Assembly (NCBI GenBank): GCA_043812955.1
Contig: JBDRLN010000066.1
Location: 64,885-128,884, forward strand
Length of the DNA stretch: 64,000 bases
Source: Candidatus Omnitrophota bacterium
Lineage (GTDB): Bacteria > Omnitrophota > Gorgyraeia > Gygaellales > Profunditerraquicolaceae
Reading direction: 5' to 3'
In this document: one piece after another, positions 3,607 to 46,474 of the stretch
Position numbering within the stretch: position 1 is the stretch's first letter
Layout of the letters: each line of letters opens with the position of its first letter
Notes under the pieces: model-generated
Seen by the model: only the letters and a program-made list of their open reading frames with translations
Told to the model about the DNA's origin: nothing
Database searches by the model: none
Position numbers and translations under genes: made by a program

Positions 3607-3629
3607 GTTATATATACGGAGGTTTAATA

Positions 3630-7518: not shown

Positions 7519-7530
7519 GAATAGTAAATT

Positions 7531-8361: not shown

Positions 8362-8370
8362 AGGATAGGT

Positions 8371-9600: not shown

Positions 9601-9603
9601 ATT

Positions 9604-10660: not shown

Positions 10661-10874
10661 AGAACTGGATTGCGCTTTTTAAGACCATCCAGATTTACCG
10701 GCGATGTCTAAGTTTGGGCAATCAGAAGGTTTCTCTTTGGGTACGACCAAAAAAATCAAATTTCCCGAAGGAATATAATTGTTTTTAAGTTAGCTATAGA
10801 AAATGTTTGCTACAAAACCGGGAAAGTTTCCCTGACCCGGTTTCGACTTGACTTTTTTTATGTGAAAGGCGATT

Positions 10875-11823: not shown

Positions 11824-11824
11824 T

Positions 11825-12661
11825 ATGGAAGGACTGGAATCAAAACTTATTAATTGTGGGTTGATTACTACCCAACAGGCGCTGCAGGCTGAAAAAGAGG
11901 CGCTGGACTGTAGGAAGTCCTTAAGCGCTGCTCTGGTAAAATTAGGGTTCGTAACGGAAGAAGGGATGGCTATATTTTTTGCCGACGAATGTTCGATACC
12001 GTATGTCCGGGTTTCAGATTATGTTATTTCTAGGGAAGTACTTAAAATACTGGATGAGAGTTTCTGCCGGCAGTATATGGTTATTCCGGTATTTAAGATA
12101 GGAAAAAGTTTATTTGTAGCCATGAATAACCCGTTGGATACCGCTCTAACGGATAACCTGTTTAAAATAACCAGCCTGGATATCGAGCCTTTGATTGCCT
12201 CCGGGACAGAGATATTAAGAAATATAAACTTGTATTATGGGCCGCAGGAGAAGAATTTCGAGGTTGAGAAATTCATAATTAATCAAAATACCATTAAGTG
12301 TGTGCCTTTTCATCGGGAATCGGAGAGGCTGAATTTAAAAATCCCGGTCAGTTTAACCATAGATGATAAAAATCTTGCTTTGCGCGGACTTTCTTCGGTA
12401 GATGGGTTTACCCAGAATATATCCAATGGAGGGACGGCTATAGGCCTGGAGGTATTTTTTTTTCTTCCTAAGGGGGTTAATTTAATCCTAGAGTTTAAGC
12501 TCTTTCAAGACCTAAAATCTACGGAAGAAATAATCAAAGCCAAGGGCCAGGTGGTCCATTACTCTATGGGTAAAAATAAGAAATTTTTACTTGGGGTACA
12601 ACTTGCTGACCTAGATAGGTCAGATCGGAATAAGCTTTTAAAACTTGCCAGCCAAAGATAA
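11825..12661 (+). CDS. T2SSE_N (GspE N-terminal/MshEN-like) domain fused to a PilZ domain
   Basis: N-terminal ~140 aa match the GspII_E N-domain fold sequence (CGLITTQQALQA...VFKIGKSLFVAMNNPLD). C-terminal RESER...NISNGGTAIG matches PilZ motifs. Confidence 0.7.
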   Translation: MEGLESKLINCGLITTQQALQAEKEALDCRKSLSAALVKLGFVTEEGMAIFFADECSIPYVRVSDYVISREVLKILDESFCRQYMVIPVFKIGKSLFVAMNNPLDTALTDNLFKITSLDIEPLIASGTEILRNINLYYGPQEKNFEVEKFIINQNTIKCVPFHRESERLNLKIPVSLTIDDKNLALRGLSSVDGFTQNISNGGTAIGLEVFFFLPKGVNLILEFKLFQDLKSTEEIIKAKGQVVHYSMGKNKKFLLGVQLADLDRSDRNKLLKLASQR

Positions 12662-13031
12662 TCTTTCTTTGAAAATACCTAAAATCATATTATTCAATAT
12701 TGTAGTTATTGCCTGTCAGTTTATCGCTCCCGGGTTAAATTACGCCCAGACCAGCGAGATAGTTAGGGAATTGGCCCTGGAGAGGGCCAAAGAAAAAAAA
12801 CCTACCCTCGAGACAGTTAAGAAGGATCAAGTAAAAAAACCAGAAAAGCTAAAATTAGCCAAACCTTTGATAAAGACTAAGCAGCCCAAAGTTGAAGAGA
12901 TTAAGCCAGTCAGCCGTAAATCCAATATGGGCCTGGAAGAGCCCAGGATGGCCCAGGAATCCAACGCTCTGGATAAAGAGCTGAAGGATTGGTTGGGTAA
13001 GCTTAAAACCATAGAATCTGTTCTTCCATAA
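12645..13031 (+). CDS. Lys/Glu-rich secreted hypothetical protein
   Basis: ORF with a hydrophobic N-terminus and then a low-complexity K/E/P region. Start codon uncertain (TTG in the track). Confidence 0.4.
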   Translation: MPAKDNLSLKIPKIILFNIVVIACQFIAPGLNYAQTSEIVRELALERAKEKKPTLETVKKDQVKKPEKLKLAKPLIKTKQPKVEEIKPVSRKSNMGLEEPRMAQESNALDKELKDWLGKLKTIESVLP

Positions 13032-13150
13032 GGTCATCCCCCCCCAATGATTTCTAACTTGAAAAGCCGTACATATATGTTATACTTAAATCAGCAGAGT
13101 ATTTTATTAGTTTAAGCCTTTTCGAAGGGGGGGATGCGGATAAAAAAGGC

Positions 13151-13178
13151 TTGACAAAAATACTTATTATGCTAAAAT
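13151..13178 (+). promoter_or_regulatory. Sigma70-type promoter with extended -10 for pilA (TTGACA-N16-TGcTAAAAT)
   Basis: Read directly, 24 nt upstream of the AGGAGGTG RBS. Confidence 0.6.
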
Positions 13179-13201
13179 CATTTTCTAAGGAGGTGACTGA
13201 T

Positions 13202-13549
13202 ATGAAAAGACATGGTTTTACGTTAATCGAACTAGTTATGGTTATTGTCATCATAGGTATATTAGCGGCAATTGCTATACCCAGGTTTGTCAGCTTAAGG
13301 GAAGATGCTCTGAGGGCAGCTTGTGAGGCTAATGCTGGAGCGTTAAGGGCGGCTATTTCTAATTTTTACGCCAACGCTACACTGCATAATGTTAATGAAA
13401 CCGACGCTTGGCCGGCGGATATTAGCAACGCAACGTTTATAAGTGCTTACATGCAATCTGCACCAGCAGCCCCAGTTAATGGCACTTGGGCGGCAGCTTA
13501 TTCTAATACTACAGGTATATTAAACATGACTCAAGCTTGCGGAAGTTAG
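13202..13549 (+). CDS. pilA: Type IV major pilin (prepilin, class III signal peptide)
   Basis: MKRHGFTLIELVMVIVIIGILAAIAIP: the G/F cleavage-methylation site and Glu+5. 115 aa. Strong RBS. The track's ORF start at 13151 is upstream of the true start. Confidence 0.9.
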   Translation: MKRHGFTLIELVMVIVIIGILAAIAIPRFVSLREDALRAACEANAGALRAAISNFYANATLHNVNETDAWPADISNATFISAYMQSAPAAPVNGTWAAAYSNTTGILNMTQACGS

Positions 13550-13680: not shown

Positions 13681-14619
13681 TTAATAAAAGGGATAACTTT
13701 TCCTTCTTTCTTTGATGTAGGCGCTCTTTTCTAAATCGGCTTTGGCAAAATCTTTTATCTCGGATACGATCTGGATCGTCTGGGCAGGCGAGGTAAATTG
13801 GTAGGATTCATTAGTGGTTATTCCGATATGAATCTTAAGGATAGGTTTTTTTTCAAAATCACCCTTACGGTTTTTAAGCAGCACTCCATCCCTCTCCCGG
13901 TCCTCTCCATCATAAAAAGAAGCAATGCCTGCGTCAAAGTCATGGATTATTTTATCAGCAATTGAGTCAATGCTATCTGCCAGGCTTAAAAATATATAGT
14001 CGTCGTCTTGGGGATGAGAAAGAAAGTCTGATGGGGATCCGCGTTCTTTAAGCGCCCTCAAGATTATTGATCCGGCATACCGGATCACATCATCCCCGCG
14101 TTTAAATCCATAGCGCTGGTTAAAATCCCTTAATTTATCCATGTCCGCGTAATAAATAGCAAAGGGGTTCTTGCCGGCTATTCTTTTTTCTAATTCTTTA
14201 TATAGGCTGGATTGTCCGGGAAGTTTAGTTAAGGGATGGATGTCCTGCTGCCTGGCTATCCGGTATAAATTAAGTTTAACCTTTAATAATAGTTCATTTT
14301 CGACAGAGTTGCGGGAAATATAATCATCCGCTCCGGCATAGGTGATCCGGGCCTTATTTAAAAGATCGGAGTCAGAAAGGATGAATAATACCGGTATATA
14401 GCGGAAGAGAAAATTTTTCTTCAGGGCATTGCAGATCTCCAGGCCGTTTATATTCAAGGATTGGAATTCTGAAATGATCAGGTCGGGAAGTTCTTTTTCC
14501 AGGCCGGCGAGGGCAGCATCCTGGTCAGGGTAGACCTTGACCTCATAGTCTTCTCCTAAAAGCAGAAGGACAATCAGGTTTTGTAATGCAGGCTCGTTTG
14601 CTATTAGGCTTATTTTCAT
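13681..14619 (-). CDS. Receiver + GGDEF-family domain protein with a degenerate active-site motif (PQDDDY in place of GGDEF)
   Basis: N-terminal receiver (DLIISEF). GGDEF-domain landmarks LTKLPG, DMDKLRDFNQRYGFKRGD, IGITTN. The signature pentapeptide reads HPQDDDY. No RxxD I-site. Confidence 0.7.
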   Translation of the reverse strand: MKISLIANEPALQNLIVLLLLGEDYEVKVYPDQDAALAGLEKELPDLIISEFQSLNINGLEICNALKKNFLFRYIPVLFILSDSDLLNKARITYAGADDYISRNSVENELLLKVKLNLYRIARQQDIHPLTKLPGQSSLYKELEKRIAGKNPFAIYYADMDKLRDFNQRYGFKRGDDVIRYAGSIILRALKERGSPSDFLSHPQDDDYIFLSLADSIDSIADKIIHDFDAGIASFYDGEDRERDGVLLKNRKGDFEKKPILKIHIGITTNESYQFTSPAQTIQIVSEIKDFAKADLEKSAYIKERRKSYPFY

Positions 14620-15038: not shown

Positions 15039-15422
15039 ATGGCGAGAGTTATGATAGTAGATGACGCGCTTTTTATGCGTAAAATGCTGACTAAGACCTT
15101 GACCGAAGCCGGCCATGAAGTCTTGGCTGAGGCAGGCAATGCCAAAGAAGCCGTAGAGAAATATAAAAAGTTCAAACCGGACCTGGTAACTATGGACATT
15201 GTAATGCCATTGATGGAAGAGATGGATGGCATTGGCGCGGTAAAAGAGATCATTAGGATTGACCCCAAGGCCAAAATCCTGGTTTGTTCGGTAATGGGCC
15301 AGCAGTCGCTGGTAGTGGAAGCTATTCGTTCCGGCGCCAAGGATTTTGTGATTAAGCCTATCAAGCCTGAGAGGCTGATCGAGGCGGTGAATAAGGCGCT
15401 GATGTCCCAAGATAAAAAATAA
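15039..15422 (+). CDS. cheY: Chemotaxis response regulator CheY
   Basis: Single receiver domain, 127 aa, with D-D...D (TMDIVMP)...K. A TTGACA-N16-TATAAT promoter lies ~50 nt upstream. Confidence 0.85.
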   Translation: MARVMIVDDALFMRKMLTKTLTEAGHEVLAEAGNAKEAVEKYKKFKPDLVTMDIVMPLMEEMDGIGAVKEIIRIDPKAKILVCSVMGQQSLVVEAIRSGAKDFVIKPIKPERLIEAVNKALMSQDKK

Positions 15423-15425
15423 ATA

Positions 15426-16034
15426 ATGGCTGATATTGTTTTCAGTGATTCCCAGAAGGACGCCTTGCAGGAGATTGGCAATATCTGCGCCGGTAATGCC
15501 GCTACCGCCCTTTCCCAATTACTCAATAAAAAAATAAATATAGTTGTCCCTCGTATCCTCCTGGTCCGCCTGGAAGATGTCCCTATGGTGGTTGGAGGGC
15601 CGGATACGTTAGTAGCCGGGCTGATACTTAAGGTTTTAGGGGACCTGCCCAGCCATATCCTTTTTATTTTTTCCCAAAGAGACGCACTTATCCTGGCTTC
15701 GTTGTTGACTGGTAAAAAAGTTACTGAGTCCGGTATACTAGGGAGATTAGAGACATCTGCCCTTAAGGAGATCGGGGTTATCTTAGCCAGCTCTTATTTA
15801 GGCGCCTTAGGCAATTTTTTGGGGATGGGGTTAGTTCCGGCGGTCCCGGAATTAATTGTGGATATGGCCGGTTCAATGATAGACTATATTTTGATCGAAT
15901 TAAGTTGTAATTCGGAATTTGCCTTACTGATTGAATCGGAATTCAAGGAGCCTCAAGCTTCGATAACCGGACATTTTTTTCTCATTCCTAATGTCAGCGC
16001 CTTAGACGCCATACTTAAAGCCATAAATAAATAA
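15426..16034 (+). CDS. cheC: CheC/CheX-family CheY-P phosphatase
   Basis: Two CheC motifs (EIGNICAGNAATALS and EIGVILASSYLGAL). Confidence 0.75.
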   Translation: MADIVFSDSQKDALQEIGNICAGNAATALSQLLNKKINIVVPRILLVRLEDVPMVVGGPDTLVAGLILKVLGDLPSHILFIFSQRDALILASLLTGKKVTESGILGRLETSALKEIGVILASSYLGALGNFLGMGLVPAVPELIVDMAGSMIDYILIELSCNSEFALLIESEFKEPQASITGHFFLIPNVSALDAILKAINK

Positions 16035-17974
16035 TGATTCAAGACAGTTACCGTGAATTATTTTTCTCCGAATCCCAAGAGTATCTAAACAGTATTAATA
16101 AATGTTTATTGCGGGTTGAAACTAATCCCGGGGATTTTGAGGCTATAAATGAGATATTCCGCTGTATGCATACCTTAAAAGGTATGTCTGCCACTATGGG
16201 ATATGATAAGCTCACCCAGCTTTCCCATCATACCGAGGATCTTTTGGATGAATTGCGCTCTAAGAAAAAACAGGTCAGCGCGGAGATCATTGATGTGCTC
16301 TTTAGTTGTGTAGATATTCTAGAAAAATTAATAGACGCGGCAAAAGCCAAGAAAGAGCCTGGAGTGGATATTTACGGGTATATTGATAAAATAAAAAAAA
16401 TCATAATTAGGGAAGGGCAATCTTCACCTCTGGAGCCTAGGACTCAAGGCCTAGAGTTTAGCCCGGAGGAAAACTCGAGGCTAAGGGAATTAAAGGCCAG
16501 CGGTTTAAATATATTTAAAATAAAGATTACCCTGATTAAAGATTGCACTATGAAAGAGGCCCGGGCCTTCCTTTTGCTGACCAGCCTTAAAAAAATAGGC
16601 GAATTAATTAAGTCCATTCCTTCGGTCGAGGCCTTGAAGGAGGGTAATTTTGATTTATCTTTTACCTTTATTTTAGCTCTCCAGAAAGATGACAAGGCAG
16701 TCCACCAGAAATTATTGGGCGTAGCTGAGGTAGATGAAGTATCTATTGAGCCTGTAGTGATAGAAGACAATGCCTCCGGAGATATTCAGCCGCAGGCAGC
16801 GACAACTTATACCAAGAAGATCCAGAGCATGCGTATTAGCGTTGATAGATTGGATAAGATTATGAATCTGATGGGGGAATTAGCCATTGCCAAGATCCAG
16901 CTGATCCAGATTGTCCAGTCTTTTAAAATCAAGGAATTGGAGGAAGTTAGTTTTACCCTGGAACATCTAACTTCTACGCTTCAGGATGAAATAATCCAGA
17001 CCAGGCTTCTGCCGTTAGCCTATATCCTGGATACTTTTCCCAGGTTGGCCAGGGATTTGGCCAAGAAACAGGGTAAGAATATTGATCTGGAGATTATCGG
17101 CAGTGAAATAGAATTGGACCGGGTGGTTTTGGATGAGATAGGCGATCCGTTAGTCCATCTTATCCGCAACGCCATTGACCACGGTATTGAAGATCCCGAA
17201 GAGAGAAAAAAAACCGGTAAACCTGAGCAGGGGAAGATTCTTATTAAGGTAAGCCGCCAGAAAGGGCAGATATTTATTGAAGTTATTGATGACGGCAGAG
17301 GGGTTAATTTTAATGAAGTAAAACGCCTAGCCATAAAAAAAGGGATTATCAGTGAAAAAGACGCCGGTGATTTAGATGAAAAAAGGGTTTTGGATCTGAT
17401 CGCTCTGCCGGGTTTTTCTACTGCCGGGAAAATTACGGATATTTCCGGCCGGGGTGTCGGGCTGGATGTGGTTAAAGCCAAGATGGAGGTTTTAGGCGGG
17501 AGGGTGGATTTTGAAACTAAACAGGGTTCAGGAAGCCGTTTTATCTTAATTATTCCTTTAACCCTGGCTATAATTAAGGCTATGCTGGTCCGGGTCAGGA
17601 ACGAGATATTCGCCGTTCCTTTGATGAGTATAAGAGAGACTATCAAGATTGAAGAGAAAGAAATCAAAGTTTTACAGAGTTTTGAAGTAACCCGGGTCAG
17701 GGATGAGATCATCCCGATAATCCGCCTGGAGAAGAGCATGGGCTTAGAAGGCCTGGTAGCGGATAAAAAAGAGATCGAAAGGCGTAAATCAGTAGTAATT
17801 ATTGAGCATGGTAAAAAAGTTTTAGGCTTAGTGGTAAGCCAGGTAATAGGTGAACAGGACATAGTGGTCAAGCCTTTAGGCTCTATTATTAAGAAGACTA
17901 AGGGTATTGCCGGAGCAACTGTGTTAGGGGATGGCCGGGTTGCTTTAATCCTGGATACTATGAGTTTAGTATAA
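16034..17974 (+). CDS. cheA: Chemotaxis histidine kinase CheA
   Basis: HPt (HTLKGMSATMGY), dimerisation, HATPase (GRGVGLDVV) and a C-terminal CheW-like domain. Confidence 0.9.
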   Translation: MIQDSYRELFFSESQEYLNSINKCLLRVETNPGDFEAINEIFRCMHTLKGMSATMGYDKLTQLSHHTEDLLDELRSKKKQVSAEIIDVLFSCVDILEKLIDAAKAKKEPGVDIYGYIDKIKKIIIREGQSSPLEPRTQGLEFSPEENSRLRELKASGLNIFKIKITLIKDCTMKEARAFLLLTSLKKIGELIKSIPSVEALKEGNFDLSFTFILALQKDDKAVHQKLLGVAEVDEVSIEPVVIEDNASGDIQPQAATTYTKKIQSMRISVDRLDKIMNLMGELAIAKIQLIQIVQSFKIKELEEVSFTLEHLTSTLQDEIIQTRLLPLAYILDTFPRLARDLAKKQGKNIDLEIIGSEIELDRVVLDEIGDPLVHLIRNAIDHGIEDPEERKKTGKPEQGKILIKVSRQKGQIFIEVIDDGRGVNFNEVKRLAIKKGIISEKDAGDLDEKRVLDLIALPGFSTAGKITDISGRGVGLDVVKAKMEVLGGRVDFETKQGSGSRFILIIPLTLAIIKAMLVRVRNEIFAVPLMSIRETIKIEEKEIKVLQSFEVTRVRDEIIPIIRLEKSMGLEGLVADKKEIERRKSVVIIEHGKKVLGLVVSQVIGEQDIVVKPLGSIIKKTKGIAGATVLGDGRVALILDTMSLV

Positions 17975-17982
17975 TATAAAAT

Positions 17983-20121
17983 ATGAAAGAGATATTCGCT
18001 TTAGATATCGGCACGCGCAAGGTTATGGGCATTATTGCCCGTAAAAACGAAGACATGATAGAGGTATTGGATGTTGAGGTTATAGAGCATTCTGCTCGGC
18101 CGATGTTTGACGGGCAGATCCATAGTATTGATGAAGTAGCCAAGATTGTCAAGTTGATCCGGGAGAGGCTGGAGTTGCGCCTAAATAAAAAATTAACTCA
18201 GGTGGGGATTGCGGTTGCCGGAAGAAATCTAGTGACTTACAAAAGCAGGGTCGGTAAGGCTTTCGATTCTAAGCAGGAGATAACCCAAGACCTGGTAAGG
18301 GAGCTGGAGCTTGAGGCGGTGGATAATATCGTATCTGATTCGGGTAAAGATCTCTCGGAGTTCTATTGTGTAGGCTATAGCCCGGTTTATTATGAATTAG
18401 ATTCAAACCGAATCTCCAATCTTATCGGCCATATTGCCTTGTCAATAGCGGCTGAGGTAATAGTTACATTCCTGCCGCGGTTGGTATTAGACAGCATGTT
18501 CTCGGTTTTAAAGAAAGTCGGCCTTGAGGCGACCAATATAACTTTAGAGCCTATCTCGGCTATTAACGTGATAATCCCCGCGGAGATGCGTAATCTAAAT
18601 ATAGTCTTGGTAGATATCGGCGCGGGCACTTCGGATCTGGCCTTGACTAAAGCCGGGGTTATATTCGCTTACGGCATGGTCCCAGAAGCCGGAGATGAAG
18701 TAACTGAGAGGATCTCGGAAGTCCTCCTGGTGGATTTTGCCACAGCCGAAAAAATAAAGAGGTCATTAAATACTTTAAATGAAATTGAATATGAGGATAT
18801 TTGGGGCAGGCTGCGCCACACCCACTCCGTAAGTTTAAAACAGTTTTTAATGCCATCAGTAAAAAGATTGGCTGAATTGATCGCCAAGGCCGGCCTGGAA
18901 TTAAATGGGGGTATCCCCCAGGCAGTAGTAGCGGTAGGCGGAGGCAGCCTTACTTTTAATTTAATGGAAGAACTGGCTTCGAGCTTTGGCCTGCCCTTAG
19001 ATAAAGTAGGCATCCGTCTTCCTCAGGCGATAAAGAATATCCAGGATGCCCATAAGAAATTAACCGGCCCGGAAGCGGTTACGCCCATCGGTATTGCCCA
19101 GATGACCGCTAATATCCAGGGGTTGCGTTTTATTGAAGTTGAAGTTAATGGTAAAAAGAACAAGATACTGGATTTTTATCAAAAAAAGGACGTCATGGGG
19201 GCGATTGCTATTTCCGGAGTGCTTAATAATAAAAAGTTGTATGCCCGGCCAGGGATGGCCTTGACCGTTAAGGTTAACGGCGAATTAAAAATTATTAAAG
19301 GAACAATGGGCGAACCAGCCAGAATATTTTTAAATAGCAGGTTGGTTGCTTCTTTATCCGAAAAGATAAACGACGCCGACAAGATTGAATTTCAGGGGGC
19401 TGTGGATGGCCTTGATGGCACAGCAATGATCAGGGACCTGGTGCAGATAGAACCCCTTGCCGTTATCTTTAACCAGGAGATCCTACATATTGTTGCCCCT
19501 ATAATTATGGACGGCGTTGAGGTAAGCTTAGGCGTTGCGGTCTATGACCGGGCGGAAGTTTTCCACTCAATATTAAAGGTAAAGGATATTTTAAAATTTA
19601 AGGATATAAAATTAGAGGATTTATCCCAGAGGCAGGTCCTGGTAAATATCAACGGGACGCCGAAGATCTTAACCCAGAGGAATTTTACCCTCCTAGTAAA
19701 TAATAATATTGCGGATTTAGATACTGAAGTTAAAGAAAATGATACGCTGGAGTTTATCTACCAAACACCTACTTTCTATAGGATAAAAGATATAATCGAC
19801 TTGCCCGAAGGGCCTAAAAAATTAAATATCAATGTTGATGGTAAAGACTTGGAGATAGCTGTAGAGCCGGTGCAGGTCTTTATGAACGGCCACCAGGTCA
19901 GTCCTGAGGAGTTTGTAATCGATGGGGCTGACATCCGGGTCTACTCTTTAAGGGAGCGCCAGATTTTACTTTCTGAGATATTCCGCTATATTGACTTTGA
20001 CCCCCAGAGGGCGGTAGGCAAAAGGATGAAAATATTAGTTAATGACCAGCCTGCAGGGTTTACCACTCTTTTAAAAGAGGGCTCAAGGGTGAATATTATT
20101 TTGGAAGATAGGGAGGAATAA
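17983..20121 (+). CDS. FtsA/PilM-like actin-fold ATPase fused to ~4 tandem ThiS/MoaD-like beta-grasp repeats (712 aa)
   Basis: N-terminus ALDIGTRKV...VDIGAGTSDLAL...AEKIKRSL follows the FtsA/ASKHA phosphate-1/2/adenosine motifs. The C-terminal 350 aa contain repeated V(K/N)(V/I)NG...(D/N)xD(K/T)(I/L)E(F/I) units. Confidence 0.6.
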   Translation: MKEIFALDIGTRKVMGIIARKNEDMIEVLDVEVIEHSARPMFDGQIHSIDEVAKIVKLIRERLELRLNKKLTQVGIAVAGRNLVTYKSRVGKAFDSKQEITQDLVRELELEAVDNIVSDSGKDLSEFYCVGYSPVYYELDSNRISNLIGHIALSIAAEVIVTFLPRLVLDSMFSVLKKVGLEATNITLEPISAINVIIPAEMRNLNIVLVDIGAGTSDLALTKAGVIFAYGMVPEAGDEVTERISEVLLVDFATAEKIKRSLNTLNEIEYEDIWGRLRHTHSVSLKQFLMPSVKRLAELIAKAGLELNGGIPQAVVAVGGGSLTFNLMEELASSFGLPLDKVGIRLPQAIKNIQDAHKKLTGPEAVTPIGIAQMTANIQGLRFIEVEVNGKKNKILDFYQKKDVMGAIAISGVLNNKKLYARPGMALTVKVNGELKIIKGTMGEPARIFLNSRLVASLSEKINDADKIEFQGAVDGLDGTAMIRDLVQIEPLAVIFNQEILHIVAPIIMDGVEVSLGVAVYDRAEVFHSILKVKDILKFKDIKLEDLSQRQVLVNINGTPKILTQRNFTLLVNNNIADLDTEVKENDTLEFIYQTPTFYRIKDIIDLPEGPKKLNINVDGKDLEIAVEPVQVFMNGHQVSPEEFVIDGADIRVYSLRERQILLSEIFRYIDFDPQRAVGKRMKILVNDQPAGFTTLLKEGSRVNIILEDREE

Positions 20122-20240
20122 AATATACTCATACTCCGCTACGTAAGCGCTGCCGAAATTATCTGCGATAATTTTGGCGCACTTCGCGGAGTCTCACTAA
20201 ATGCGCCTATGGCGCTAAATTGTGTTCGAGGAGGTTAGAG

Positions 20241-20504
20241 ATGCAGATCCATAATTATATGGAGGATATTGTCAGGGACGCATTGGAAGAATTGCTTGCT
20301 CAAAAAGATAATATTTGCAAGTGCCAGAAGTGCAAGCTGGATATGATGGTCTGGGCCTTAAACCGTATGCTCCCTAAATACTCAGTATCGGATAAAGGGA
20401 GATTTTTTACTAAATTAGGAGAAGAAGAAATTCAATCCAAGGTTGATGTAGTCAGGGAGCTGACCAAGGCTATTACGAATATCAGTAAGAACCCGCGGCA
20501 TTAA
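20241..20504 (+). CDS. ComFB-family small protein (4-Cys; family reported as cyclic-dinucleotide receptors)
   Basis: HNYMEDIVRDALEELL...ICKCQKCKLDMMVWALNRMLPKY matches the ComFB signature. ATG at 20241 behind a GAGGAGGT RBS; the track's start at 20220 is less likely. Confidence 0.65.
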   Translation: MQIHNYMEDIVRDALEELLAQKDNICKCQKCKLDMMVWALNRMLPKYSVSDKGRFFTKLGEEEIQSKVDVVRELTKAITNISKNPRH

Positions 20505-20516
20505 ATTAAATATTTT

Positions 20517-21356
20517 ATGGAAGAAGAAAAATTCACCGGCAGTGGTAATATAAAAGAGCTTGACTTAAAGAATGTCATTGAATATATCCGTACCAAAAGA
20601 GGCGTTGATCTATTGAATTCCTACCGGAGTACTTTTGTATTTCGCCGTCTGCGTATCCGGATGCGGGAAGTCAAGGCGTTAAATTATGCCGAATATACCG
20701 ATATAATTGAGAAAGACCCTAAAGAATTCAATAAGTTTTTGGATGTGTTATCGATTAATGTCACCGAATTTTTTCGCGATAAAGAGGTATTTGACGCCTT
20801 CAGGAATATTATCTTGCCCGGTATAATTAAGAATAAAGAAAGCAATAAAGAGAATATTATCCGGGTCTGGTCAGCAGGCTGCGCTTCAGGGCAAGAACCT
20901 TATTCACTGGCTATTATTTTAAAAGAGGCATTAGCGGATAAAAAAGATTTTTTAATCCGAATAACAGCCACAGATATAGATAGCTTGGCTTTAGAGAATG
21001 CCGATAAGGCAGAATATAACATCAGTGATTTTAAAGAGATAGATAATAAAATCCTTGAAAAATACTTTACCTTAGCTTATAATGGATGTTATAAGTTAAA
21101 TGACGAGATAAAGAATATGGTTTTATTCCGGCGGAATAACCTTATCAGCGAGCCGCCGTTGCATTTTATAGATGTGATATTCTGCCGGAATGTCCTGATT
21201 TATTTTAAACGTGAACAGCAGGACCTGATATTTCAAAAGTTTAACCAGGCGCTTAACCGGCAAGGATTCCTGGTGATCGGCAAGACTGAAATGATCTGGA
21301 GCAAGGATTTATTCGCTGCGGTAAATACCCGGCAGAAGATTTATCAGAAGTTATAA
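20517..21356 (+). CDS. cheR: Chemotaxis protein methyltransferase CheR
   Basis: SAM-binding VWSAGCASGQEPYSLAI plus the CheR N-domain. Confidence 0.9.
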   Translation: MEEEKFTGSGNIKELDLKNVIEYIRTKRGVDLLNSYRSTFVFRRLRIRMREVKALNYAEYTDIIEKDPKEFNKFLDVLSINVTEFFRDKEVFDAFRNIILPGIIKNKESNKENIIRVWSAGCASGQEPYSLAIILKEALADKKDFLIRITATDIDSLALENADKAEYNISDFKEIDNKILEKYFTLAYNGCYKLNDEIKNMVLFRRNNLISEPPLHFIDVIFCRNVLIYFKREQQDLIFQKFNQALNRQGFLVIGKTEMIWSKDLFAAVNTRQKIYQKL

Positions 21357-21391
21357 ATTTTAATGAATCTAACTAAAAGGAGGTAAGGGTT

Positions 21392-21763
21392 ATGGCAAAA
21401 GTATTAGTGGTAGATGACGCTTTATTTATGCGCAAGATGCTCTCGGATATCCTTAAAAAAGAAGGTATTGAGATTTGCGGAGAGGCGGAAAACGGAAAAG
21501 ACGCGATCGGAAAATACCAGCAGTTAAAACCCGATCTGGTAACTATGGATATAGTAATGCCGAAAGTAGAAGAGATCGACGGGATCGGCGCGGTCAAGGA
21601 GATTATCAAGATAGACCCTCAAGCCAAGATTATTATGGTCTCGGCTATGGGCCAGCATTCCTTGGTAGTTGAGGCGATCCAGGCCGGGGCAAAAGACTTT
21701 GTTACCAAGCCTTTTCAGCCCTCCCGGGTGGTGGAGGCGGTAAACCGGGTTCTGGGAGGATAG
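21392..21763 (+). CDS. cheY: Chemotaxis response regulator CheY (second copy, ~70% identical to the first)
   Basis: Receiver domain. Strong AAAGGAGGT RBS. Confidence 0.85.
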   Translation: MAKVLVVDDALFMRKMLSDILKKEGIEICGEAENGKDAIGKYQQLKPDLVTMDIVMPKVEEIDGIGAVKEIIKIDPQAKIIMVSAMGQHSLVVEAIQAGAKDFVTKPFQPSRVVEAVNRVLGG

Positions 21764-21770
21764 ATTCTTT

Positions 21771-22274
21771 ATGCAGGAAGAGATTATGGAAGATAAAATT
21801 ATAGAAGTTGAAATGGCCCAAATGGCCGTGGATAATGCCCCGGCAAGGTTAGTCACCCGGGGTTTAGGGTCTTGTTTAGGCATCACCATTTATGACCCGG
21901 TTAAAAAAATCGGCGGCATGGTCCACGCTATGCTTCCGGATATAGAAATAGCCAAGATTCGGACTAACCCGGCCCGTTTTGTTAATTCATCGATCAAGAA
22001 AATAGTTGAGGAGTTGGAAATAAGGGGTTGTTTAAGAAGGGGGTTGGTGGCTAAAGTGTTTGGCGGGGCGCATATGTTTAGTTTTATTGTTTCCGATGGA
22101 TCTTTGAATGTGGGTCTGAAAAATGTTGAAATGGCTGAATCCATTTTAAATGAAATGAAGATAAAGATTGCGGCCCAGGAGACCGGGGGGACATTTGGAA
22201 GGACTATTGAACTAAATTTGGATAACGGGAAGGTTTTGATTAAAACAGTCTCTTGGGGAGAAAAAGAGGTGTAA
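21771..22274 (+). CDS. cheD: Chemoreceptor glutamine deamidase CheD
   Basis: GLGSCLGITIYD...GGMVHAMLP, the CheD catalytic Cys/His region. Confidence 0.8.
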   Translation: MQEEIMEDKIIEVEMAQMAVDNAPARLVTRGLGSCLGITIYDPVKKIGGMVHAMLPDIEIAKIRTNPARFVNSSIKKIVEELEIRGCLRRGLVAKVFGGAHMFSFIVSDGSLNVGLKNVEMAESILNEMKIKIAAQETGGTFGRTIELNLDNGKVLIKTVSWGEKEV

Positions 22275-22297
22275 ATCAAAAAGAGGTGTAAATCGTA

Positions 22298-23332
22298 ATG
22301 GAAGAAAAGATTCGCGTATTAGTGGTTGATGATTCTTTTTTAATGCGCCGGGTTATATCGGACATGATAAATAATAGCCCGGGTTTTGAAGTCGTTGGCA
22401 AGGCTAAAGACGGTAAAGAGGCATTAGTTAAAGTGTATTCATTAAAGCCCGATATTGTAACCCTGGATATAAATATACCCTTGATGGACGGCCTCTGCGT
22501 ACTGGAAGAAATAATGAGGAAACAGCCCACTCGGGTTATTATGGTTTCAGCTTATACCCGCGCGGGTACCAGCGCGACCATCAAGGCCCTGGAGTTGGGG
22601 GCTATAGATTTCATAGCTAAGCCGTCAGGAGAAATATCCCTGGATTTAAATAAGCTCGAGCAAGAAATAATTTCTAAATTAAAGATGGCTTCCCGGGTTG
22701 ACTTGGATAAGTTTAGCGCTTTGGCTAAGCCGGTTAAGAAGCCAGGGGCCGTTATTAAGAAGATAGTGGTTATCGGAGCATCTACCGGCGGGCCAAAAGC
22801 GGTTTTAGATATAATGCAGTATATCCCTGTGGAAAACAATGCGGCATTTATTATAGTGCAGCATATGCCTAAGGGTTTTACCTTAAGTTTTGCCGAAAGG
22901 ATATCCTGGCAGACCGGGATCAAGACTAAAGAGGCTGAAGAAGGGGATGAGATTATGTCAGGTAAAGTCTATGTAGCCCCGGCGGGTTTCCACTTAGTTT
23001 TGGAAAAGGGCTATTCCGGCGTAAAGGTTAAATTCACCGAAGATCCTTTGGTAAATTTTGTCCGGCCTTCAATTGATGTAACTATGACTTCTGTAGCGGG
23101 TATATTCGGTAAAGATGTAATAGGGGTAATTTTGACTGGTATGGGTAAAGATGGAATGGAAGGGGCAAGGAGTATAAAGTCTAAGGGGGGCTATGTTGTT
23201 GTCCAGGATGAAAAGACTTCAGTTATCTGGGGGATGCCTAAGGCGGTTCATGATGCAGGCCTAGCGGATAAGGTTTTGCCGTTATCCCAGATCCCCAAGA
23301 TGATTATGGAGCGCATCGAGAGAGAGGAATAA
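22298..23332 (+). CDS. cheB: Chemotaxis response regulator protein-glutamate methylesterase CheB
   Basis: Receiver domain plus methylesterase domain (GASTGGPKAV; catalytic S/H/D context). Confidence 0.9.
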   Translation: MEEKIRVLVVDDSFLMRRVISDMINNSPGFEVVGKAKDGKEALVKVYSLKPDIVTLDINIPLMDGLCVLEEIMRKQPTRVIMVSAYTRAGTSATIKALELGAIDFIAKPSGEISLDLNKLEQEIISKLKMASRVDLDKFSALAKPVKKPGAVIKKIVVIGASTGGPKAVLDIMQYIPVENNAAFIIVQHMPKGFTLSFAERISWQTGIKTKEAEEGDEIMSGKVYVAPAGFHLVLEKGYSGVKVKFTEDPLVNFVRPSIDVTMTSVAGIFGKDVIGVILTGMGKDGMEGARSIKSKGGYVVVQDEKTSVIWGMPKAVHDAGLADKVLPLSQIPKMIMERIEREE

Positions 23333-23336
23333 ATAT

Positions 23337-23945
23337 ATGTATTCCAGGTTGAATTTGATCCAGATGGATGTATTAAAGGAGTTGAGCTCGATCGGTTCAG
23401 CTAACGCCGCTACCGCTCTTTCTTCGTTGGTTTCCAGTAGAGTTGAAATTACAGTGCCTCAGGTGAATCTGGTGCCTTTGGAGAATATATCCAGTTTGTT
23501 CGGGGGTATGGATAAGTTACTTTTTGTGCTGGATACGGAGTTAAAAGGCGATATATCGGGGAGGATATTTATATTCCTGTCTCTTGAAGACGCCAAGGGC
23601 CTGGGGGGGATGCTTCTGGGAAAATCTCCGGAAGAAGTGGATATCAGAGATGAGATGTTCCTTTCCTCGCTTAAAGAATCCGCCAATATACTGGGGGGTT
23701 CTTATATATCAGCCCTGGCTGAGATGACCAACATGCTCATACTTAACTCAACGCCTTCTTTAGCTATTGATATGGTGGGGGCGGTATTGGATTTTATCTT
23801 TATTAAGATCGCCCAATATTCCGAAGAGGTGCTTTTTATCAGGAATTCACTTCAGGTTCACGGCAAGAACCTGAACAGTTTAATAATGTTATTCCCGGAC
23901 AATGAATCACTTATCAAAATTTTTGAGACATTAAATGTAAAATAA
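23337..23945 (+). CDS. cheC: CheC/CheX-family phosphatase (second copy)
   Basis: ELSSIGSANAATALS and ESANILGGSYISALA motifs. Confidence 0.7.
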   Translation: MYSRLNLIQMDVLKELSSIGSANAATALSSLVSSRVEITVPQVNLVPLENISSLFGGMDKLLFVLDTELKGDISGRIFIFLSLEDAKGLGGMLLGKSPEEVDIRDEMFLSSLKESANILGGSYISALAEMTNMLILNSTPSLAIDMVGAVLDFIFIKIAQYSEEVLFIRNSLQVHGKNLNSLIMLFPDNESLIKIFETLNVK

Positions 23946-24051
23946 AGGAGCGCGTTCATATCCCGACTGCGTCGGGATCTCACTAAATGCCCGCCTGAGA
24001 GTGAGGCAGGCGCCAAAAAGCAGCGCAAAATTGTGTTCGAGGAGGTATAAG

Positions 24052-24552
24052 ATGGCTACGGAGAAATCCAAGGAATTTCAATTAGTTGTTTTTACTCTTG
24101 GCGATGAAGAATTTGGAGTGGACATTGCTCAGGTGAGGGAGATCGTAAGGCTGGTCCAGATCACCTATCTGCCTAAAGCCCCTTCTTTTATCGAGGGCGT
24201 GGTAAACTTAAGAGGGCAGGTCTTGGCGGTTATTGACCTTTCTAAAAGGTTAAACATCCCTTCTAAGACCCGGGGAGAACAATCCAGAATCATAGTGGTA
24301 GAGGTAAGCGATAATACTGTTGGTATGATCGTAGATTCTGTCTCTGAGGTATTACGTTTGTCTTCGGATAATGTAGAGGGGGTTCCTAGTTTAGTTGAGA
24401 CTGAGGTGGCGGAACACTATATACGGGGAGTGGGAAAATTAAAAGACAGGCTTTTGGTCCTTTTGGATTTGAACCGGGTCTTGAGCCAGGAAGAAGTCCA
24501 GCATGTGGATCAACATGTAAAAGTGGCCGTAAATAGCATAAAGCCTGAATAA
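24052..24552 (+). CDS. cheW: Chemotaxis coupling protein CheW
   Basis: Single CheW domain (FGVDIAQVREI...IEGVVNLRG). ATG at 24052 behind a GAGGAGGT RBS. The track's upstream extension covers the conserved leader. Confidence 0.85.
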   Translation: MATEKSKEFQLVVFTLGDEEFGVDIAQVREIVRLVQITYLPKAPSFIEGVVNLRGQVLAVIDLSKRLNIPSKTRGEQSRIIVVEVSDNTVGMIVDSVSEVLRLSSDNVEGVPSLVETEVAEHYIRGVGKLKDRLLVLLDLNRVLSQEEVQHVDQHVKVAVNSIKPE

Positions 24553-24652
24553 CTCTGTTATTTTATAGGGGATAATGATAATTAAGGGAAAGTTGTATAA
24601 TAATGATTAAATAGATTTATTAGTATTTTAGTGCTTTAGTACTAAGGAGGTC

Positions 24653-26314
24653 ATGATGAGATTAAATATACGGGTCAAGACTATTGGTCTATTTGTAGTT
24701 TTGTTTACGTTGGGCGTTTTATCCCTGACATTTTTTTCGGTTTTTCAGGTCAATAAGGGTTTTAAGAATGAGTTGAATATTAAAGCAGAGGTTATTGCCA
24801 AGAGTTTGAATTCAGCCTTAAACCAGCCTCTTTCTCTGGGCATGACCGCTACTATCAAATATCTACTTAATTCCGCCAAGGAGACCTCCGATGATTTGAT
24901 CTATGCCCACGTAATTGATGTTTCTGGATTATGTGTTGCCAGTACTGATAAAAGCCTTCCCGGTAAGGTGCTTAAAGAAAATCCATTTGAAAAGGCTGCC
25001 TTGGAAGTTAATGGGTTTAGCAGTGTAACTGTGCCAGACAAAATAAATCTCTTTGAGGTAAGGATACCGATCATATCCGAGGATATCGGTAAATTGGGTA
25101 TTTTGCGTATAGGTATGACTACTTCTATTATGAATAAGCTAATCTCTCAGATGACCAAGGTGATCATATTAATAGGTATAATTATACTTATAATAGGTGG
25201 GGTGATATTTAACTTTATTATAACCGGCGGAATAATAAAGCCTCTTAAGCAGGTAGTATTAATCTTAAAGACCATGGTAACTGGAGGGGGAGATCTGACC
25301 CAGCGTATAGTAGTTCAGACCAATGATGAAATCGAGGATATGGCTACCTTGTTCAATACTTATATAGAAACGCTGCATAATATGGTAGCCAAGATCAGGC
25401 TTACCGCGGGAAGCGTATCCGGTACAGCTGAACAGATGTCGTCTTCTACGCAGGAGATGAATGCTTCTACTCAGGAAGTCTCTAACGCGATAAATCAGGT
25501 TAGTAGGGGCGCGACTACTCAGGCCGGCAGGATCGAAGAAACTTTTGAAATCATGGAGAGATCAGCGATCAGCCTTAAACAGGTAGTTGCAAATGCCCAG
25601 AATACCAGTCAGGCTATCGGTCAAACTAGTGCTAAGGCTGAAAATGGCCGTATTGTAGCCCAGGAGGCAGTGGAGAAGATAGAGCGTTTAACCAATACCG
25701 TGGTTGAAACTACTAAGGTTATTCAGGACCTGGGCCAGATGTCTCAGCAGATAGGCGAGATTACCGAGACCATAACTTCTATAGCTGACCAGACTAATCT
25801 TTTGGCCCTTAACGCCGCTATTGAAGCTGCCCGCGCCGGTGAAGCTGGCAGGGGCTTTGCGGTTGTTGCCGAAGAGGTACGTAAACTTGCCGAAGGTTCA
25901 GCTGAGGCGGTAAGAAAGATAGGTGGCCTGATCAAGGCTATCCAGAGCGAGGCTAATAGGGCGGTAAACGCTATCGAAATTAGCTCTAAGGAGGTTCTGG
26001 AGGGTAAGGTTCAGATAATTAAAATCTCAGAAGTTTTATTCGAGATTAATAAATCGACCAAGGAAGCTAATAACCTAGCTAATCAGATCGCTTCAGCCGG
26101 CCAGGACCGCGTAGTAGAGATGGAGGGGGTGATTAAAACCTTTAATGAAGTAGCTAATATTGCCAAGGAATCAGCTACTACCGCTCAGGAAGTATCTTCA
26201 ACCACCGAAGAACAGACTGCTTCAATGGAAGAGATGTCTGCTTCTTCCCAGGAATTAGCCCGTCTGGCAGTGGATTTAAAAGAATTAGTAGGTAAGTTTA
26301 AATTGAAGGAATAA
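24653..26314 (+). CDS. Methyl-accepting chemotaxis protein (two TM helices, HAMP, MCP signalling domain)
   Basis: Highly conserved signalling hairpin [38 protein letters not shown]. Confidence 0.9.
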
Positions 26315-26319: not shown

Positions 26320-27279
26320 TTAGTCTTTACGCCTATCTTTTACAAATGCACTTCCCCCTAAGGTTTTAGCGTAGGATTTTAGTTCTGTAGCAATCTGGAT
26401 TACTTCGCCGATGTGCGAGAATTTCGATTGTTCATTAGTGGCGATACCAATAGAAACGCTTAAAAGAGGGATTCGACAAAAATCTCCCCTTCTATTTTTA
26501 GCGATAATATATCCTTTTTCTTTGTCCTCTTCGTTGTAAAAAGAGCCAATAGTCTTGTCAAATTCATCTACAATATCCTGGGATATTTTTTCAATCAGCT
26601 CAGGTACGCAGATGAATACAAAATCATCGCCTCCGATATGGCCCAAAAAGTCCGTTGGCTTACCTATTTTCTCTAAGACATTCATTATGATCGATGCGGT
26701 ATGGTTAATGATCTGGTCGCCTTTATCAAAGCCGTAGCAATCATTAAACTCTTTGAATTTATTTAAGTCTAGGTATCCTATAGCTAACGGTGCGTTAGTT
26801 TTTATTCTCAATTCCAATTCTTTGAGTAGGGAGACATTCCCGGGCAGCTTAGTTAAAGCGTTTGCTTCTAAATCGCGGCCCAGGCGAACGAGTGAGGCCT
26901 TGATTCTTACCAGAAGTTCTCCGGCATCAATCGGGATTTCAATGTAATCGTCCGCTCCGGAGTAGATGCCTTTTATTTTATCCAGGGGATTTCTTTGGTC
27001 CATTACCAGAATGACAGAGATATGCCGGAATCGGAAATTACCGCGTATAAGTTTGCAGATTTCAATGCCGTTAATATAAGGGGCCTGAAAATCCGAGATT
27101 ATTAAATTGAATTGTTCCTTTTTAAGTAAGTCTAAGGCATCGGTCTGGGTGAGACAAATTTTTACATTATAGTTTTCTCCAGTCAAAAGCGCCAAGATGA
27201 ATTCCCGAACCTCGTCATCGTGGATTACGATCAAGATGTTGTTTTGGCCTGGCGTGTAGTTGCCGTTAATAAGGTCCAT
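26320..27279 (-). CDS. Receiver + GGDEF-family domain protein, paralog of 13681-14619, active-site motif GGDDF
   Basis: Same architecture and landmarks (LTKLPG, GFDKGD, IGIATN). Motif reads HIGGDDFVF, with Asp in place of the catalytic Glu. Confidence 0.7.
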
Positions 27280-27283
27280 CTTC

Positions 27284-27907
27284 TTATTTTAAGGATTCTA
27301 GCAATTTCTTGCAGCCATCCTGAATAAATTTAACTGATTCTGGGGTTAAGGCAAGATAGAATGAACCGTTTAAGGTATGTTCTTGTTCTTCAAAAATCGC
27401 CTCGATCAAAAGTACATACTCGGTTTTATTATCAGGGTTAAAGAGCATATTCAAGATTTGTTGAGCCGGGCCACTGATCATAGTGGGTATTGATGGGATA
27501 ATAATCATTCGCAGCATCATGCTTAATGCCCCTAAATAGGAGGATATGACTACATTGCCCACCTCTTTAATTAAGGATAGGCCCATTTCGGTTTGCCGGC
27601 CGCTTTTTTTACCATCTTCTATCAAATAGCATATGTCAATGAGTTTAAACGCGCTCTTCTCATCCATTAAAAAAAGAATGTTACCTTTGATTCCGGTTAA
27701 GATATCGCAGGATACGCTTATAACGATCTGGTCAATCAGCAGTTTATTCAAAACCATTCCTCCGGGTAAGAACTCTAGGGATGGGAGCGTAAGGCCGATC
27801 TTCTTGCCCAACATTTGTGAAAGCGCAATACTCCCCTGCCCGGCTGATATGCTGCCAACTTCTCTTAAAATATCCATTTCATCTTGCATATTTATCTCCT
27901 CTAGCAC
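27284..27907 (-). CDS. CheC/CheX-family phosphatase (third copy), co-directional with and 4 nt upstream of the GGDDF gene
   Basis: [16 protein letters not shown] and [16 protein letters not shown] motifs. Confidence 0.7.
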
Positions 27908-28061
27908 AAATATGTACCCTTAGGTGTATCGTTAAGTGCATATTGCGAAGCCCTGACCTTTTAGATATTTACTTAATATAGCTTTCCCAAAAGGGCGCAG
28001 TAAGCCCTATATTTGTATACCTATTTTATAGTATAATATCATAATTTATTGTAAGGTCAAT

Positions 28062-28130
28062 ATAAATTAGGGGACGTTTCTATTTTTACAAATTAAGGGC
28101 CGGAGAAAATAGAAACGTCCCCTAATTTAT
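28062..28130. repeat. Perfect 25-nt inverted repeat with 19-nt loop (ATAAATTAGGGGACGTTTCTATTTT ... revcomp) in a divergent intergenic region
   Basis: Read directly; flanked by AT-rich sequence. Confidence 0.6.
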
Positions 28131-46415: not shown

Positions 46416-46474
46416 ATCATCGCCTTTACTTTACCTATACCTCTACCTATACAAAATATTGCCGAGTTTATTTA

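Follow-up and report, generated by a model that had tools for sequence, protein, structure and literature searches.

The 64,000-nucleotide stretch of DNA considered here (the window; contig JBDRLN010000066.1, positions 64,885 to 128,884, of assembly GCA_043812955.1) originates from a metagenome-assembled genome (MAG) of Candidatus Omnitrophota, and the database proteins that are 100% identical to two of its products, RGA and CheC3 (the latter with corrected start), carry the same label. On its minus strand, the gene of the CheC-fold protein CheC3 is directly followed by that of RGA, a response regulator in which a receiver is joined to a GGDEF-type domain with the motif GGDDF, while a second, degenerate receiver-GGDEF gene, RGB, is found on the same strand. 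Together, RGB and RGA bracket a chemotaxis (che) operon on the plus strand. This arrangement of two paralogues on the strand opposite to the che operon had been described in a first-pass annotation of the letters alone and is borne out by open reading frames (ORFs), strands and Pfam matches. The features concerned are:

26320-27279, minus strand: RGA, receiver plus H-x-GGDDF GGDEF response regulator of 319 aa (Pfam, NCBIfam, alignments, AlphaFold2 (AF2) model)
26902-27237, minus strand: receiver domain of RGA, residues 15-126 (Pfam alignment)
26338-26859, minus strand: GGDEF-type domain of RGA, residues 141-314 (alignment to PleD, DgcB and DosC)
26620-26634, minus strand: codons of the GGDDF pentapeptide, RGA residues 216-220 (HMMER alignments)
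27284-27889, minus strand: CheC3, CheC-fold protein of 201 aa (Pfam, NCBIfam, AF2/Foldseek, start codon and ribosome-binding site)
13681-14619, minus strand: RGB, degenerate receiver-GGDEF paralogue of 312 aa (Pfam, alignments)
13996-14013, minus strand: codons of PQDDDY, RGB residues 203-208 (alignment)
15039-26314, plus strand: che operon (Pfam)

Both halves of RGA score above the respective profile cut-offs, with 55 bits for Response_reg (cut-off 30.2), 53.1 bits for the Pfam GGDEF family PF00990 (23.8) and 48.5 bits for TIGR00254 (37.4), the last model being aligned over its positions 24-160. RGA shares 43% identity with RGB. Its AF2 model, with a predicted local distance difference test score (pLDDT) of 87.9, is matched best among PDB structures by WspR (3BRE), PleD (1W25), DgcR (6ZXB), DgcB and DosC, with Foldseek E values between 1e-20 and 1e-10. 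Sub-threshold Pfam matches were also obtained for Cas10-Cmr2_palm2 (16.9 bits, cut-off 27, E=0.007) and GCH_III (12.9 bits, cut-off 21.3). The 50 listed Foldseek matches are all diguanylate cyclases or receiver domains and include no Cas10, mCpol or GTP cyclohydrolase III structure. Low scores and diguanylate cyclase structural neighbours thus rule out kinship to any of these three families as primary assignment.

HMMER alignments place residues G216-G217-D218-D219-F220 of RGA column for column on the GGEEF/GGDEF motifs of PleD, DgcB and DosC. The earlier reading of the motifs, with GGDDF in RGA, PQDDDY in RGB and no RxxD in either, is thereby confirmed, and the comparison with active cyclases which it had recommended uncovered no displaced canonical GG(D/E)EF; an artefact of frame or alignment masking such a motif is ruled out by the three independent alignments. 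At the position of the I-site, five residues before the GG, RGA carries KPTD and RGB SPSD instead of RxxD, and across the family the first residue is N, S, T, G, A, E or K without a conserved R. Without RxxD, a reading of the domain as I-site receptor for cyclic di-GMP (c-di-GMP) is ruled out. In GGDEF domains, the third residue of the motif holds Mg2+ and the fourth serves as general base across the dimer (PMC6456294); since this role is open to a carboxylate, Asp at the fourth position would keep the chemistry. Further key residues of RGA are D171 for metal binding, N179 and D188 for guanine recognition, K176 and K305 as phosphate ligands, H214, R263, K301 and R317, of which D171, K176, N179, D188 and K305 are equivalent to D327, K332, N335, D344 and K442 of PleD, respectively. 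Assignment of RGA to the Hypr GGDEF enzymes, which form cyclic GMP-AMP (cGAMP), is ruled out by the invariant Asp188, as Ser or Thr is required at this position (PleD D344, GacA S348); its exchange S348D turns Hypr enzymes into pure diguanylate cyclases (PMC6456294).

How far these residues are maintained was followed in 226 database homologues, which were pooled with RGA and RGB and fall into three subfamilies. Among the best 120 homologues of RGA (55-100% identity), a stretch of 11 residues is invariant. Subfamily A (n=134), which holds RGA, displays GGDD[F/Y] in 132 of its sequences, and subfamily C (n=17) does so in all 17 and combines it with a fully canonical receiver (DD, D57, T87, K109), so that the motif is kept in 149 of 151 sequences overall. 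D171, N179, D188, D219, R263, K301, K305 and R317 are present in 151 of 151 A/C sequences, and K176, H214, G217 and D218 in 150 each. In the two loci available for subfamily C (L039 and L040), the gene directly follows one for a histidine kinase, except that a CheY-like gene stands between them in L039, an arrangement that reads as that of a normal two-component output enzyme.

Beyond these subfamilies, a search with the GGDEF domain of RGA alone against 1.84 billion representatives yielded an H-x-GGDDF clade of at least 722 clusters at 50% identity (E<=1e-30). H-x-GGDDF is kept in 147 of the best 150 clade representatives and the invariant residue set in at least 141 of these 150; Ser at the D344 position occurs only in five representatives with a transmembrane (TM)-HAMP N-terminus among these best 150, whereas Asp188 is invariant in the A/C family of Omnitrophota. 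N-terminal parts of clade members comprise REC, REC-REC-REC, GAF, CHASE3/TM-HAMP and HK-REC-REC, and fusions to EAL and to REC-HD-GYP are found as well, architectures that correspond to those of ordinary c-di-GMP enzymes. The only publication retrieved in literature searches for HIGGDDF or GGDDF (PMC8835794) describes GSU1937, a Geobacter Hypr GGDDF enzyme with TM-HAMP, the signature Ser and no other catalytic domain; its GGDDF domain made cGAMP and c-di-GMP in vivo, while a GADDF mutant did not. GSU1937 would belong to the H-x-GGDDF clade, judging from the match of this description with the TM-HAMP members carrying Ser.

In RGB, both domains are still recognized by Pfam (Response_reg, 42.1 bits; GGDEF, 36.4 bits, cut-off 23.8), while PQDDDY is aligned with the GGDDF of RGA. 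Subfamily B (n=77), to which RGB belongs, comprises 46 motif variants, and GG is kept in only about one third of its members. The D171 position is occupied by D in 62, E in 10 and Q, S or G in 5 sequences, the K305 position by Gln in 40, and D188 varies also. H214, R263, R317 and D210 (RGA numbering) are still conserved. The phosphorylation site has drifted likewise, with D in 40 and E in 31 (40%) of the 77 acceptor positions. RGB itself carries Glu51 as acceptor and N8-E9 in the acidic pocket and, because of these exchanges, is unable to receive a phosphoryl group. In experiments on WspR, an acceptor Glu (D70E) has served to mimic activation (work cited in PMC8835794). RGB is almost certainly inactive as a catalyst, judging from these replacements, and would represent an old duplicate that lost catalysis and phospho-acceptance and kept the fold as well as a few family-specific Arg and His residues. 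The contrast in residues between A/C and B can be read as the signature of catalysis maintained in the former and lost in the latter. As GGDDF and the substrate-binding residues are fixed under strong purifying selection in A/C, RGA should not be regarded as degenerate. The first-pass annotation, which had regarded both paralogues as degenerate, hence stands for RGB with its many motif variants, but has to be revised for RGA, with its fixed motif and ligands, its large clade and an active GGDDF precedent (PMC8835794). A receptor or adaptor role is reasonable for RGB, which probably serves as a nucleotide-binding subunit or as a regulatory subunit forming heterodimers with RGA at the junction of che and pilus genes.

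The gene directly preceding RGA, previously noted as CheC/CheX-like and as the third CheC of the window, is confirmed as such by Pfam CheC (33.7 bits, cut-off 22) and NCBIfam CheC_Thtogales (E=6e-23). The AF2 model of CheC3 (pLDDT 78.8) has Thermotoga maritima CheC (1XKR) as top Foldseek match with a template modelling score of 0.78, and its structural matches 1XKR, 2F9Z and 4HYN range from 0.75 to 0.78. Translation starts at ATG 27889, 8 nt after AGGAG, instead of GTG 27907 of the ORF list; orthologues agree with this start, with which the protein is identical to database protein P0227 (201 aa). Active site 2 of CheC3 is intact (S-x3-E-x2-N-x22-P, here S-L-I-K-E-V-G-N...P) and fits the consensus D/S-x3-E-x2-N-x22-P, its Glu being kept in 119 and its Asn in 97 of 120 homologues. 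Site 1 is degraded to D-x3-E-x2-S, with Asn replaced by Ser in 105 of the 120. The two further CheC paralogues of the window, encoded within the che operon, are:

15426-16034: CheC1, CheC paralogue (Pfam)
23337-23945: CheC2, CheC paralogue (Pfam)

Each of the three paralogues has one intact site, which is site 1 in CheC1 and site 2 in CheC2 and CheC3; in CheC1, Asn of site 2 is changed to Val, and in CheC2 and CheC3, Asn of site 1 is changed to Ser or Thr. In some related genomes (loci L038, L042, L043 and L048), a fourth, fully degenerate CheC-like gene is located between CheA and an FtsA-like gene.

Only 4 nt separate the CheC3 stop from the RGA start in the window, which supports co-transcription. 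Conservation of the pair was assessed in 51 species-level GTDB loci from MAGs labelled Omnitrophota or, in a few cases, otherwise, in which 37 subfamily-A genes have readable upstream DNA. A CheC3 orthologue lies directly upstream of the RGA orthologue in 31 of these 37 loci and a CheR-like gene in the other 6. With the exception of one disrupted ORF, the gap between CheC3 and RGA ranges from -17 to +21 nt with a median of 3 nt. The pairing of a CheC-like gene with a receiver-GGDEF gene that the first-pass annotation had pointed out is therefore real and conserved. In L015, L016, L018 and L020, which belong to one sub-lineage, no che gene is within reach of the pair, and that of L018 is flanked by V-type ATPase genes and, at its opposite end, by housekeeping genes. 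As the pair persists away from che genes, CheC3-RGA moves as a unit, and by its gene order it would be a translationally coupled module, whose two proteins are likely coupled in function, too. In the six exceptional loci (L009-L013 and L050), each from a different Omnitrophota species, a long CheR-like gene (about 370-540 aa) is located some 100-370 nt upstream of the RGA orthologue, with a pilin-like gene further up; as an alternative partner, it is reminiscent of CheR-TPR proteins in chemosensory pathways of alternative function.

Pairing with CheC looks specific to subfamily A. None of four sampled REC-GGDDF representatives outside this subfamily has a CheC neighbour, the genes found beside them being an HDOD gene, a trp/his operon and a 570-aa gene. 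In another lineage, an HDOD-domain gene lies 4 nt ahead of a REC-GGDDF gene (protein P0349; L081 4157-5942 and L082 463-2248), which suggests that lineages pair H-x-GGDDF cyclases with differing small partner proteins.

For the CheC3-RGA pair, a consensus scan alone yielded the following candidate promoter element:

28033-28060, minus strand: sigma-70-like promoter match TTGACC-16-TATTAT with TG extension (10 of 12 positions)

This match, about 145 nt upstream of CheC3, is a weak candidate for the promoter of the pair. Directly upstream of it, as the best promoter-like match for CheC3, lies a perfect 18-bp inverted repeat (AGGGGACGTTTCTATTTT ... AAAATAGAAACGTCCCCT; 28069-28123) with a 19-nt spacer and a single copy in the window. 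It is situated in the divergent intergenic region between CheC3-RGA and sugar-transport genes (substrate-binding protein, major facilitator superfamily transporter and ABC permeases) and could be an operator or a bidirectional terminator.

The receiver of RGA keeps the acceptor Asp63 as well as the acidic pocket D21/D22. In the 151 A/C sequences, the acceptor is D in 137 (about 91%) and E in 12. The position of CheY T87 is M, I, V or L throughout subfamily A and is usually followed by an acidic or polar residue, while the K109 position is Lys in 100 of the 151 sequences and in about 70% of subfamily A, and Ile in the clade of the window. No link between loss of K109 or D57E in RGA and loss of the CheC3 site was seen by eye in alignments of the 31 paired loci.

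The che operon between RGB and RGA encodes, according to Pfam, CheY1, CheC1, CheA, a 712-aa FtsA/PilM-like protein, CheR, CheY2, CheD, CheB, CheC2, CheW and a methyl-accepting chemotaxis protein. CheA, encoded at 16034-17974, consists of the domains P1-P5 (Hpt, P2, dimerisation, HATPase and CheW) without a receiver, and CheR (279 aa) is devoid of TPR. Membership in the Wsp pathway is therefore ruled out, with a non-hybrid CheA, a plain CheR without TPR, two CheYs, CheD and CheC paralogues. The Wsp pathway employs the hybrid CheA-receiver kinase WspE, the CheR-TPR protein WspC, and WspR as its only output. The FtsA/PilM-like gene between CheA and CheR (17983-20121, plus strand) encodes an FtsA/MreB/PilM-like protein of actin fold with a weak ThiS-like match and occupies an equal position in the Omnitrophota loci L001, L038, L042, L043 and L048. 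It is an unusual che operon component which might link Che signalling to the pilus machinery.

Upstream of RGB, a cluster of type IV pilus genes is found, with PilN, secretin, a TPR protein, a T2SSE ATPase with MshEN, AAA_22, T2SSF, histidine kinase, PilZ, receiver, MshEN-PilZ and pilin:

81-13549, plus strand: MSHA-like type IV pilus cluster (Pfam)
5701-7518, plus strand: T2SSE ATPase with MshEN (Pfam)
9604-10461, plus strand: histidine kinase of the pilus cluster
10875-11249, plus strand: stand-alone PilZ (Pfam)
11236-11823, plus strand: receiver gene of the pilus cluster
11825-12661, plus strand: MshEN-PilZ fusion (Pfam)

The cluster thus contains three domains of c-di-GMP-receptor type (MshEN on the ATPase, PilZ alone and MshEN-PilZ), and the same cluster also adjoins the RGB orthologue in L043. 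This suggests the MshEN and PilZ proteins as candidate readers of the RGA product, with the MSHA-like pilus as controlled output. An HD/HD_5 protein of HD-GYP type (55959-57311, plus strand), in which the signature HHExxDGxGYP reads HHMRQDAKSYP, is a possible variant c-di-GMP phosphodiesterase and degrader of this product. Upstream, its gene is overlapped by an ORF of 650 aa (54023-55975) without Pfam match. Further genes on the minus strand (45834-52747) encode an Rnf-type complex made up of RnfC, D, G-like, E, A and a ferredoxin-like RnfB. A formyltransferase comes next, and enolase and FtsH are close by; this region is ordinary metabolic context unconnected with CheC3-RGA.

With these elements at hand, the following explanation is favoured. 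RGA would be a GTP-specific diguanylate cyclase of the H-x-GGDDF clade, in which Asp takes the place of Glu as general base at the fourth motif position and which, having no RxxD, would operate without product feedback. Asp63 of its remodelled receiver would be phosphorylated, the neighbouring CheA being the obvious donor, and phosphorylation would lead to the dimer needed for cyclase activity. CheC3, as obligate partner with one intact site, would remove the phosphate, so that the c-di-GMP output would closely track Che kinase activity. MshEN and PilZ proteins from the neighbouring pilus cluster would read the c-di-GMP formed, and the HD-GYP-like protein could degrade it. Catalytic activity of RGA is probable in view of the conserved residues, the clade architectures, the AF2 model and the GSU1937 precedent, and, given activity, c-di-GMP is very likely the product. 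The steps around the receiver have to be put more cautiously: an action of CheC3 as phosphatase on RGA is conceivable at somewhat less than even chance, and the role of CheA as phosphodonor is still more doubtful. Phosphorylation by CheA and dephosphorylation by CheC3 constitute the simplest reading of the module, yet not a secure one. The explanation as a whole, including CheC3 as partner, the Che/pilus logic and a regulatory RGB, falls a little short of an even chance. Domain identities, conserved residues, the division into three subfamilies, the coupling of the genes and their surroundings are direct observations, while enzymatic activity, product, phosphodonor, action of CheC3 on RGA and the role of RGB are deduced from them.

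Several properties of the GGDEF-type domain count against the proposed activity and would suit a protein that is no enzyme and binds GTP or c-di-GMP as sensor or adaptor, like the GEDEF domain of CC3396 or PopA, which corresponds to the nucleotide receptor considered by the first-pass annotation. The Pfam GGDEF model aligns to RGA only at positions 5-88 of 161, i.e. over its first half, and GGDDF does not fit the canonical motif [G/A/S]G[D/E]E[F/Y]. The Arg of DxLTGLxNR that acts across the dimer and is present in 94% of cyclases (PMC6456294) is lost, as Asn148 takes the place of PleD R300 (Asn in 149 of the 151 A/C sequences); likewise, R366 of PleD is replaced by His214, and R446 by Gly or Lys in the RGA family. 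Taken with F184 at the position of H340 and the extra residues K301, R263 and R317, the clade departs from textbook cyclases at several positions in a coordinated manner, and the family-invariant K301, one helical turn before K305, may compensate for the loss of R446. Some clade members are moreover fused to EAL or HD-GYP, where regulatory GGDEF domains are known, as in CC3396, whose GEDEF domain is a GTP-sensing regulator fused to EAL (PMC8835794 and work cited therein). The GGDDF-EAL protein PA3258 gave no cyclase phenotype (PMC8835794), and GGDDF domains fused to EAL could be GTP-sensing regulators by analogy with these two proteins. Nevertheless, a sensor role is unlikely for RGA: metal carboxylates, the Gly pair and base and phosphate ligands are strictly invariant over hundreds of clusters, as catalysis demands, and exactly the catalytic positions drift in the relaxed paralogue RGB. 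Many clade architectures include no other output domain, RxxD for c-di-GMP is missing, and one GGDDF domain is active. An active enzyme could also form a product other than c-di-GMP, such as cGAMP in the manner of Hypr, linear pppGpG or a Cas10-like oligonucleotide. GGDD is the motif of Cas10 cyclases, too. The weak Cas10-Cmr2_palm2 match would fit in here, as would the cross-dimer position, which is not Arg in Hypr enzymes either, and the TM-HAMP clade members with Ser at D344 fit the description of the cGAMP synthase GSU1937. The guanine-specific pair Asp188 and Asn179 is kept, however, in line with the effect of S348D; the Cas10 score stays far below its cut-off, the top structural matches are all diguanylate cyclases, and EAL/HD-GYP fusions as well as the neighbouring MshEN/PilZ genes point to c-di-GMP, which makes another product quite improbable.

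The proposed phosphorylation cycle faces objections of its own. RGA carries Met93 at the position of CheY T87, Asp94 at T+1 and Ile115 at that of K109, and with the conserved Thr and Lys lost its receiver is perhaps not phosphorylated at all. Three subfamily-A orthologues (L026, L027 and L029) have Glu as acceptor and each retain a CheC3 with intact site 2, so the catalytic target of CheC3 need not be RGA. Furthermore, CheA contains a P2 domain and has two CheYs of its own, and no specific tie to RGA is seen. Phosphotransfer from this CheA to both receivers, as anticipated by the first-pass annotation, thus fails for RGB with its Glu51 and N-E pocket and is plausible, yet uncertain, for RGA. 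The changes in the receiver and the orthologues with Glu could be accommodated by a complex of CheC3 and RGA that is independent of phosphorylation, in which the RGA receiver docks to CheC3 as a pseudo-substrate. CheY1~P or CheY2~P would then be the true substrate of CheC3, and its binding to CheC3 would control the cyclase. Such logic would resemble adaptation in Bacillus and Thermotoga, with its circuit of CheC, CheD and CheY~P; the CheC fold binds CheD as a non-CheY partner (2F9Z, among the top structural matches), and CheC3 and RGA remain paired outside che operons, too. Against this, the acceptor Asp63 is kept in most orthologues together with the acidic pocket, suggesting that phosphoryl chemistry is still used, and the pseudo-substrate mechanism is, on balance, rather unlikely. 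A further possibility would be an adjacency without mechanistic meaning, with CheC3 as a third CheY~P phosphatase and RGA as an unrelated cyclase on a shared promoter. Three CheC paralogues with one intact site each and the six RGA loci with a CheR-like gene upstream are compatible with it. Against it stand the overlap or gap of about 3 nt that recurs across 31 species-level loci (about 45-85% identity) and the persistence of the pair in non-che contexts. The CheC3 family (166 clusters, E<=1e-5) is of the same size order as subfamily A (134 collected sequences), and REC-GGDDF proteins of other lineages have other neighbours; chance adjacency is accordingly very improbable.

Compared with known systems, RGA shares the REC plus GGDEF architecture with WspR, DgcR and PleD and is about equal in size to the former two. 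As for WspR, it is encoded beside a chemosensory operon, so that a precedent exists for Che-type signalling into c-di-GMP. It differs from all three by GGDDF instead of GG[D/E]EF, by the missing RxxD, by Asn for the cross-dimer Arg and His for R366, by a receiver in which the conserved Thr and, in the window, the conserved Lys are gone, and by a dedicated CheC-family partner, which is not known for WspR, DgcR and PleD. Among GGDEF domains with the motif GGDDF, activity has been reported only for GSU1937 (PMC8835794). RGA is distinguished from it by a receiver instead of the TM-HAMP N-terminus and by Asp instead of Ser at the specificity position, for which reason c-di-GMP rather than cGAMP would be expected. 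CheC3 resembles CheX in combining the CheC fold with a single complete site. Structures of reference CheY~P phosphatase systems are available with T. maritima CheC (1XKR) and the CheX-CheY3 complex of Borrelia burgdorferi (3HZH). In contrast to CheC, CheX and FliY, CheC3 lacks Asn in site 1, and its gene is tied to a cyclase response regulator instead of CheD, CheY or the flagellar switch. DifG of Myxococcus is a CheC homologue in a non-motility Che pathway. RGB can be compared with PopA, PelD, SgmT and the GGDEF domain of CC3396, in which the fold is kept and the catalytic motif lost, and PopA also joins receiver domains to a dead GGDEF domain. These degenerate receptors bind c-di-GMP via RxxD or GTP via a kept A-site, however, whereas RGB has neither RxxD nor a conserved A-site.

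Response-regulator cyclases on chemosensory pathways, such as WspR, and degenerate GGDEF paralogues are already known. New are the large, essentially uncharacterised H-x-GGDDF clade, which standard motif rules score as inactive, the conserved, translationally coupled CheC-family partner of a cyclase response regulator, and the subfamilies A, B and C as a clean natural comparison of catalytic and non-catalytic constraint. In literature searches, no account of a CheC-family gene paired with a GGDEF response regulator or diguanylate cyclase was retrieved, and those on c-di-GMP and chemotaxis in Omnitrophota yielded nothing beyond PMC8835794. In the most far-reaching interpretation, which is improbable as it stands, CheC3-RGA would be a signalling module of a new kind, for which a CheC-family protein had been recruited to a second-messenger cyclase as its obligate regulatory subunit. 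This subunit would be either an auxiliary phosphatase, the first one dedicated to a GGDEF response regulator, or a switch that senses CheY~P and docks on a phosphorylation-blind pseudo-receiver, and the chemistry of the clade (Asp as base, no cross-dimer Arg, no I-site) might change product or kinetics.

In genome censuses of c-di-GMP proteins, domains with motifs outside GG[D/E]EF are usually counted as inactive. Activity of the H-x-GGDDF clade would mean that a considerable number of cyclases is being miscounted, and the effect would be greatest in phyla that have received little study, among them Omnitrophota, whose c-di-GMP may come mainly from this family. At the same time, with the CheC3-RGA module the range of the CheC/CheX phosphatase family would no longer be confined to CheY and motility, but include the regulation of an enzyme that makes a second messenger, in a compact two-protein system that is open to testing. 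The matched pair of a presumably active RGA and a dead RGB would further provide a natural experiment in which residues needed for catalysis can be told apart from those conserved for another function.

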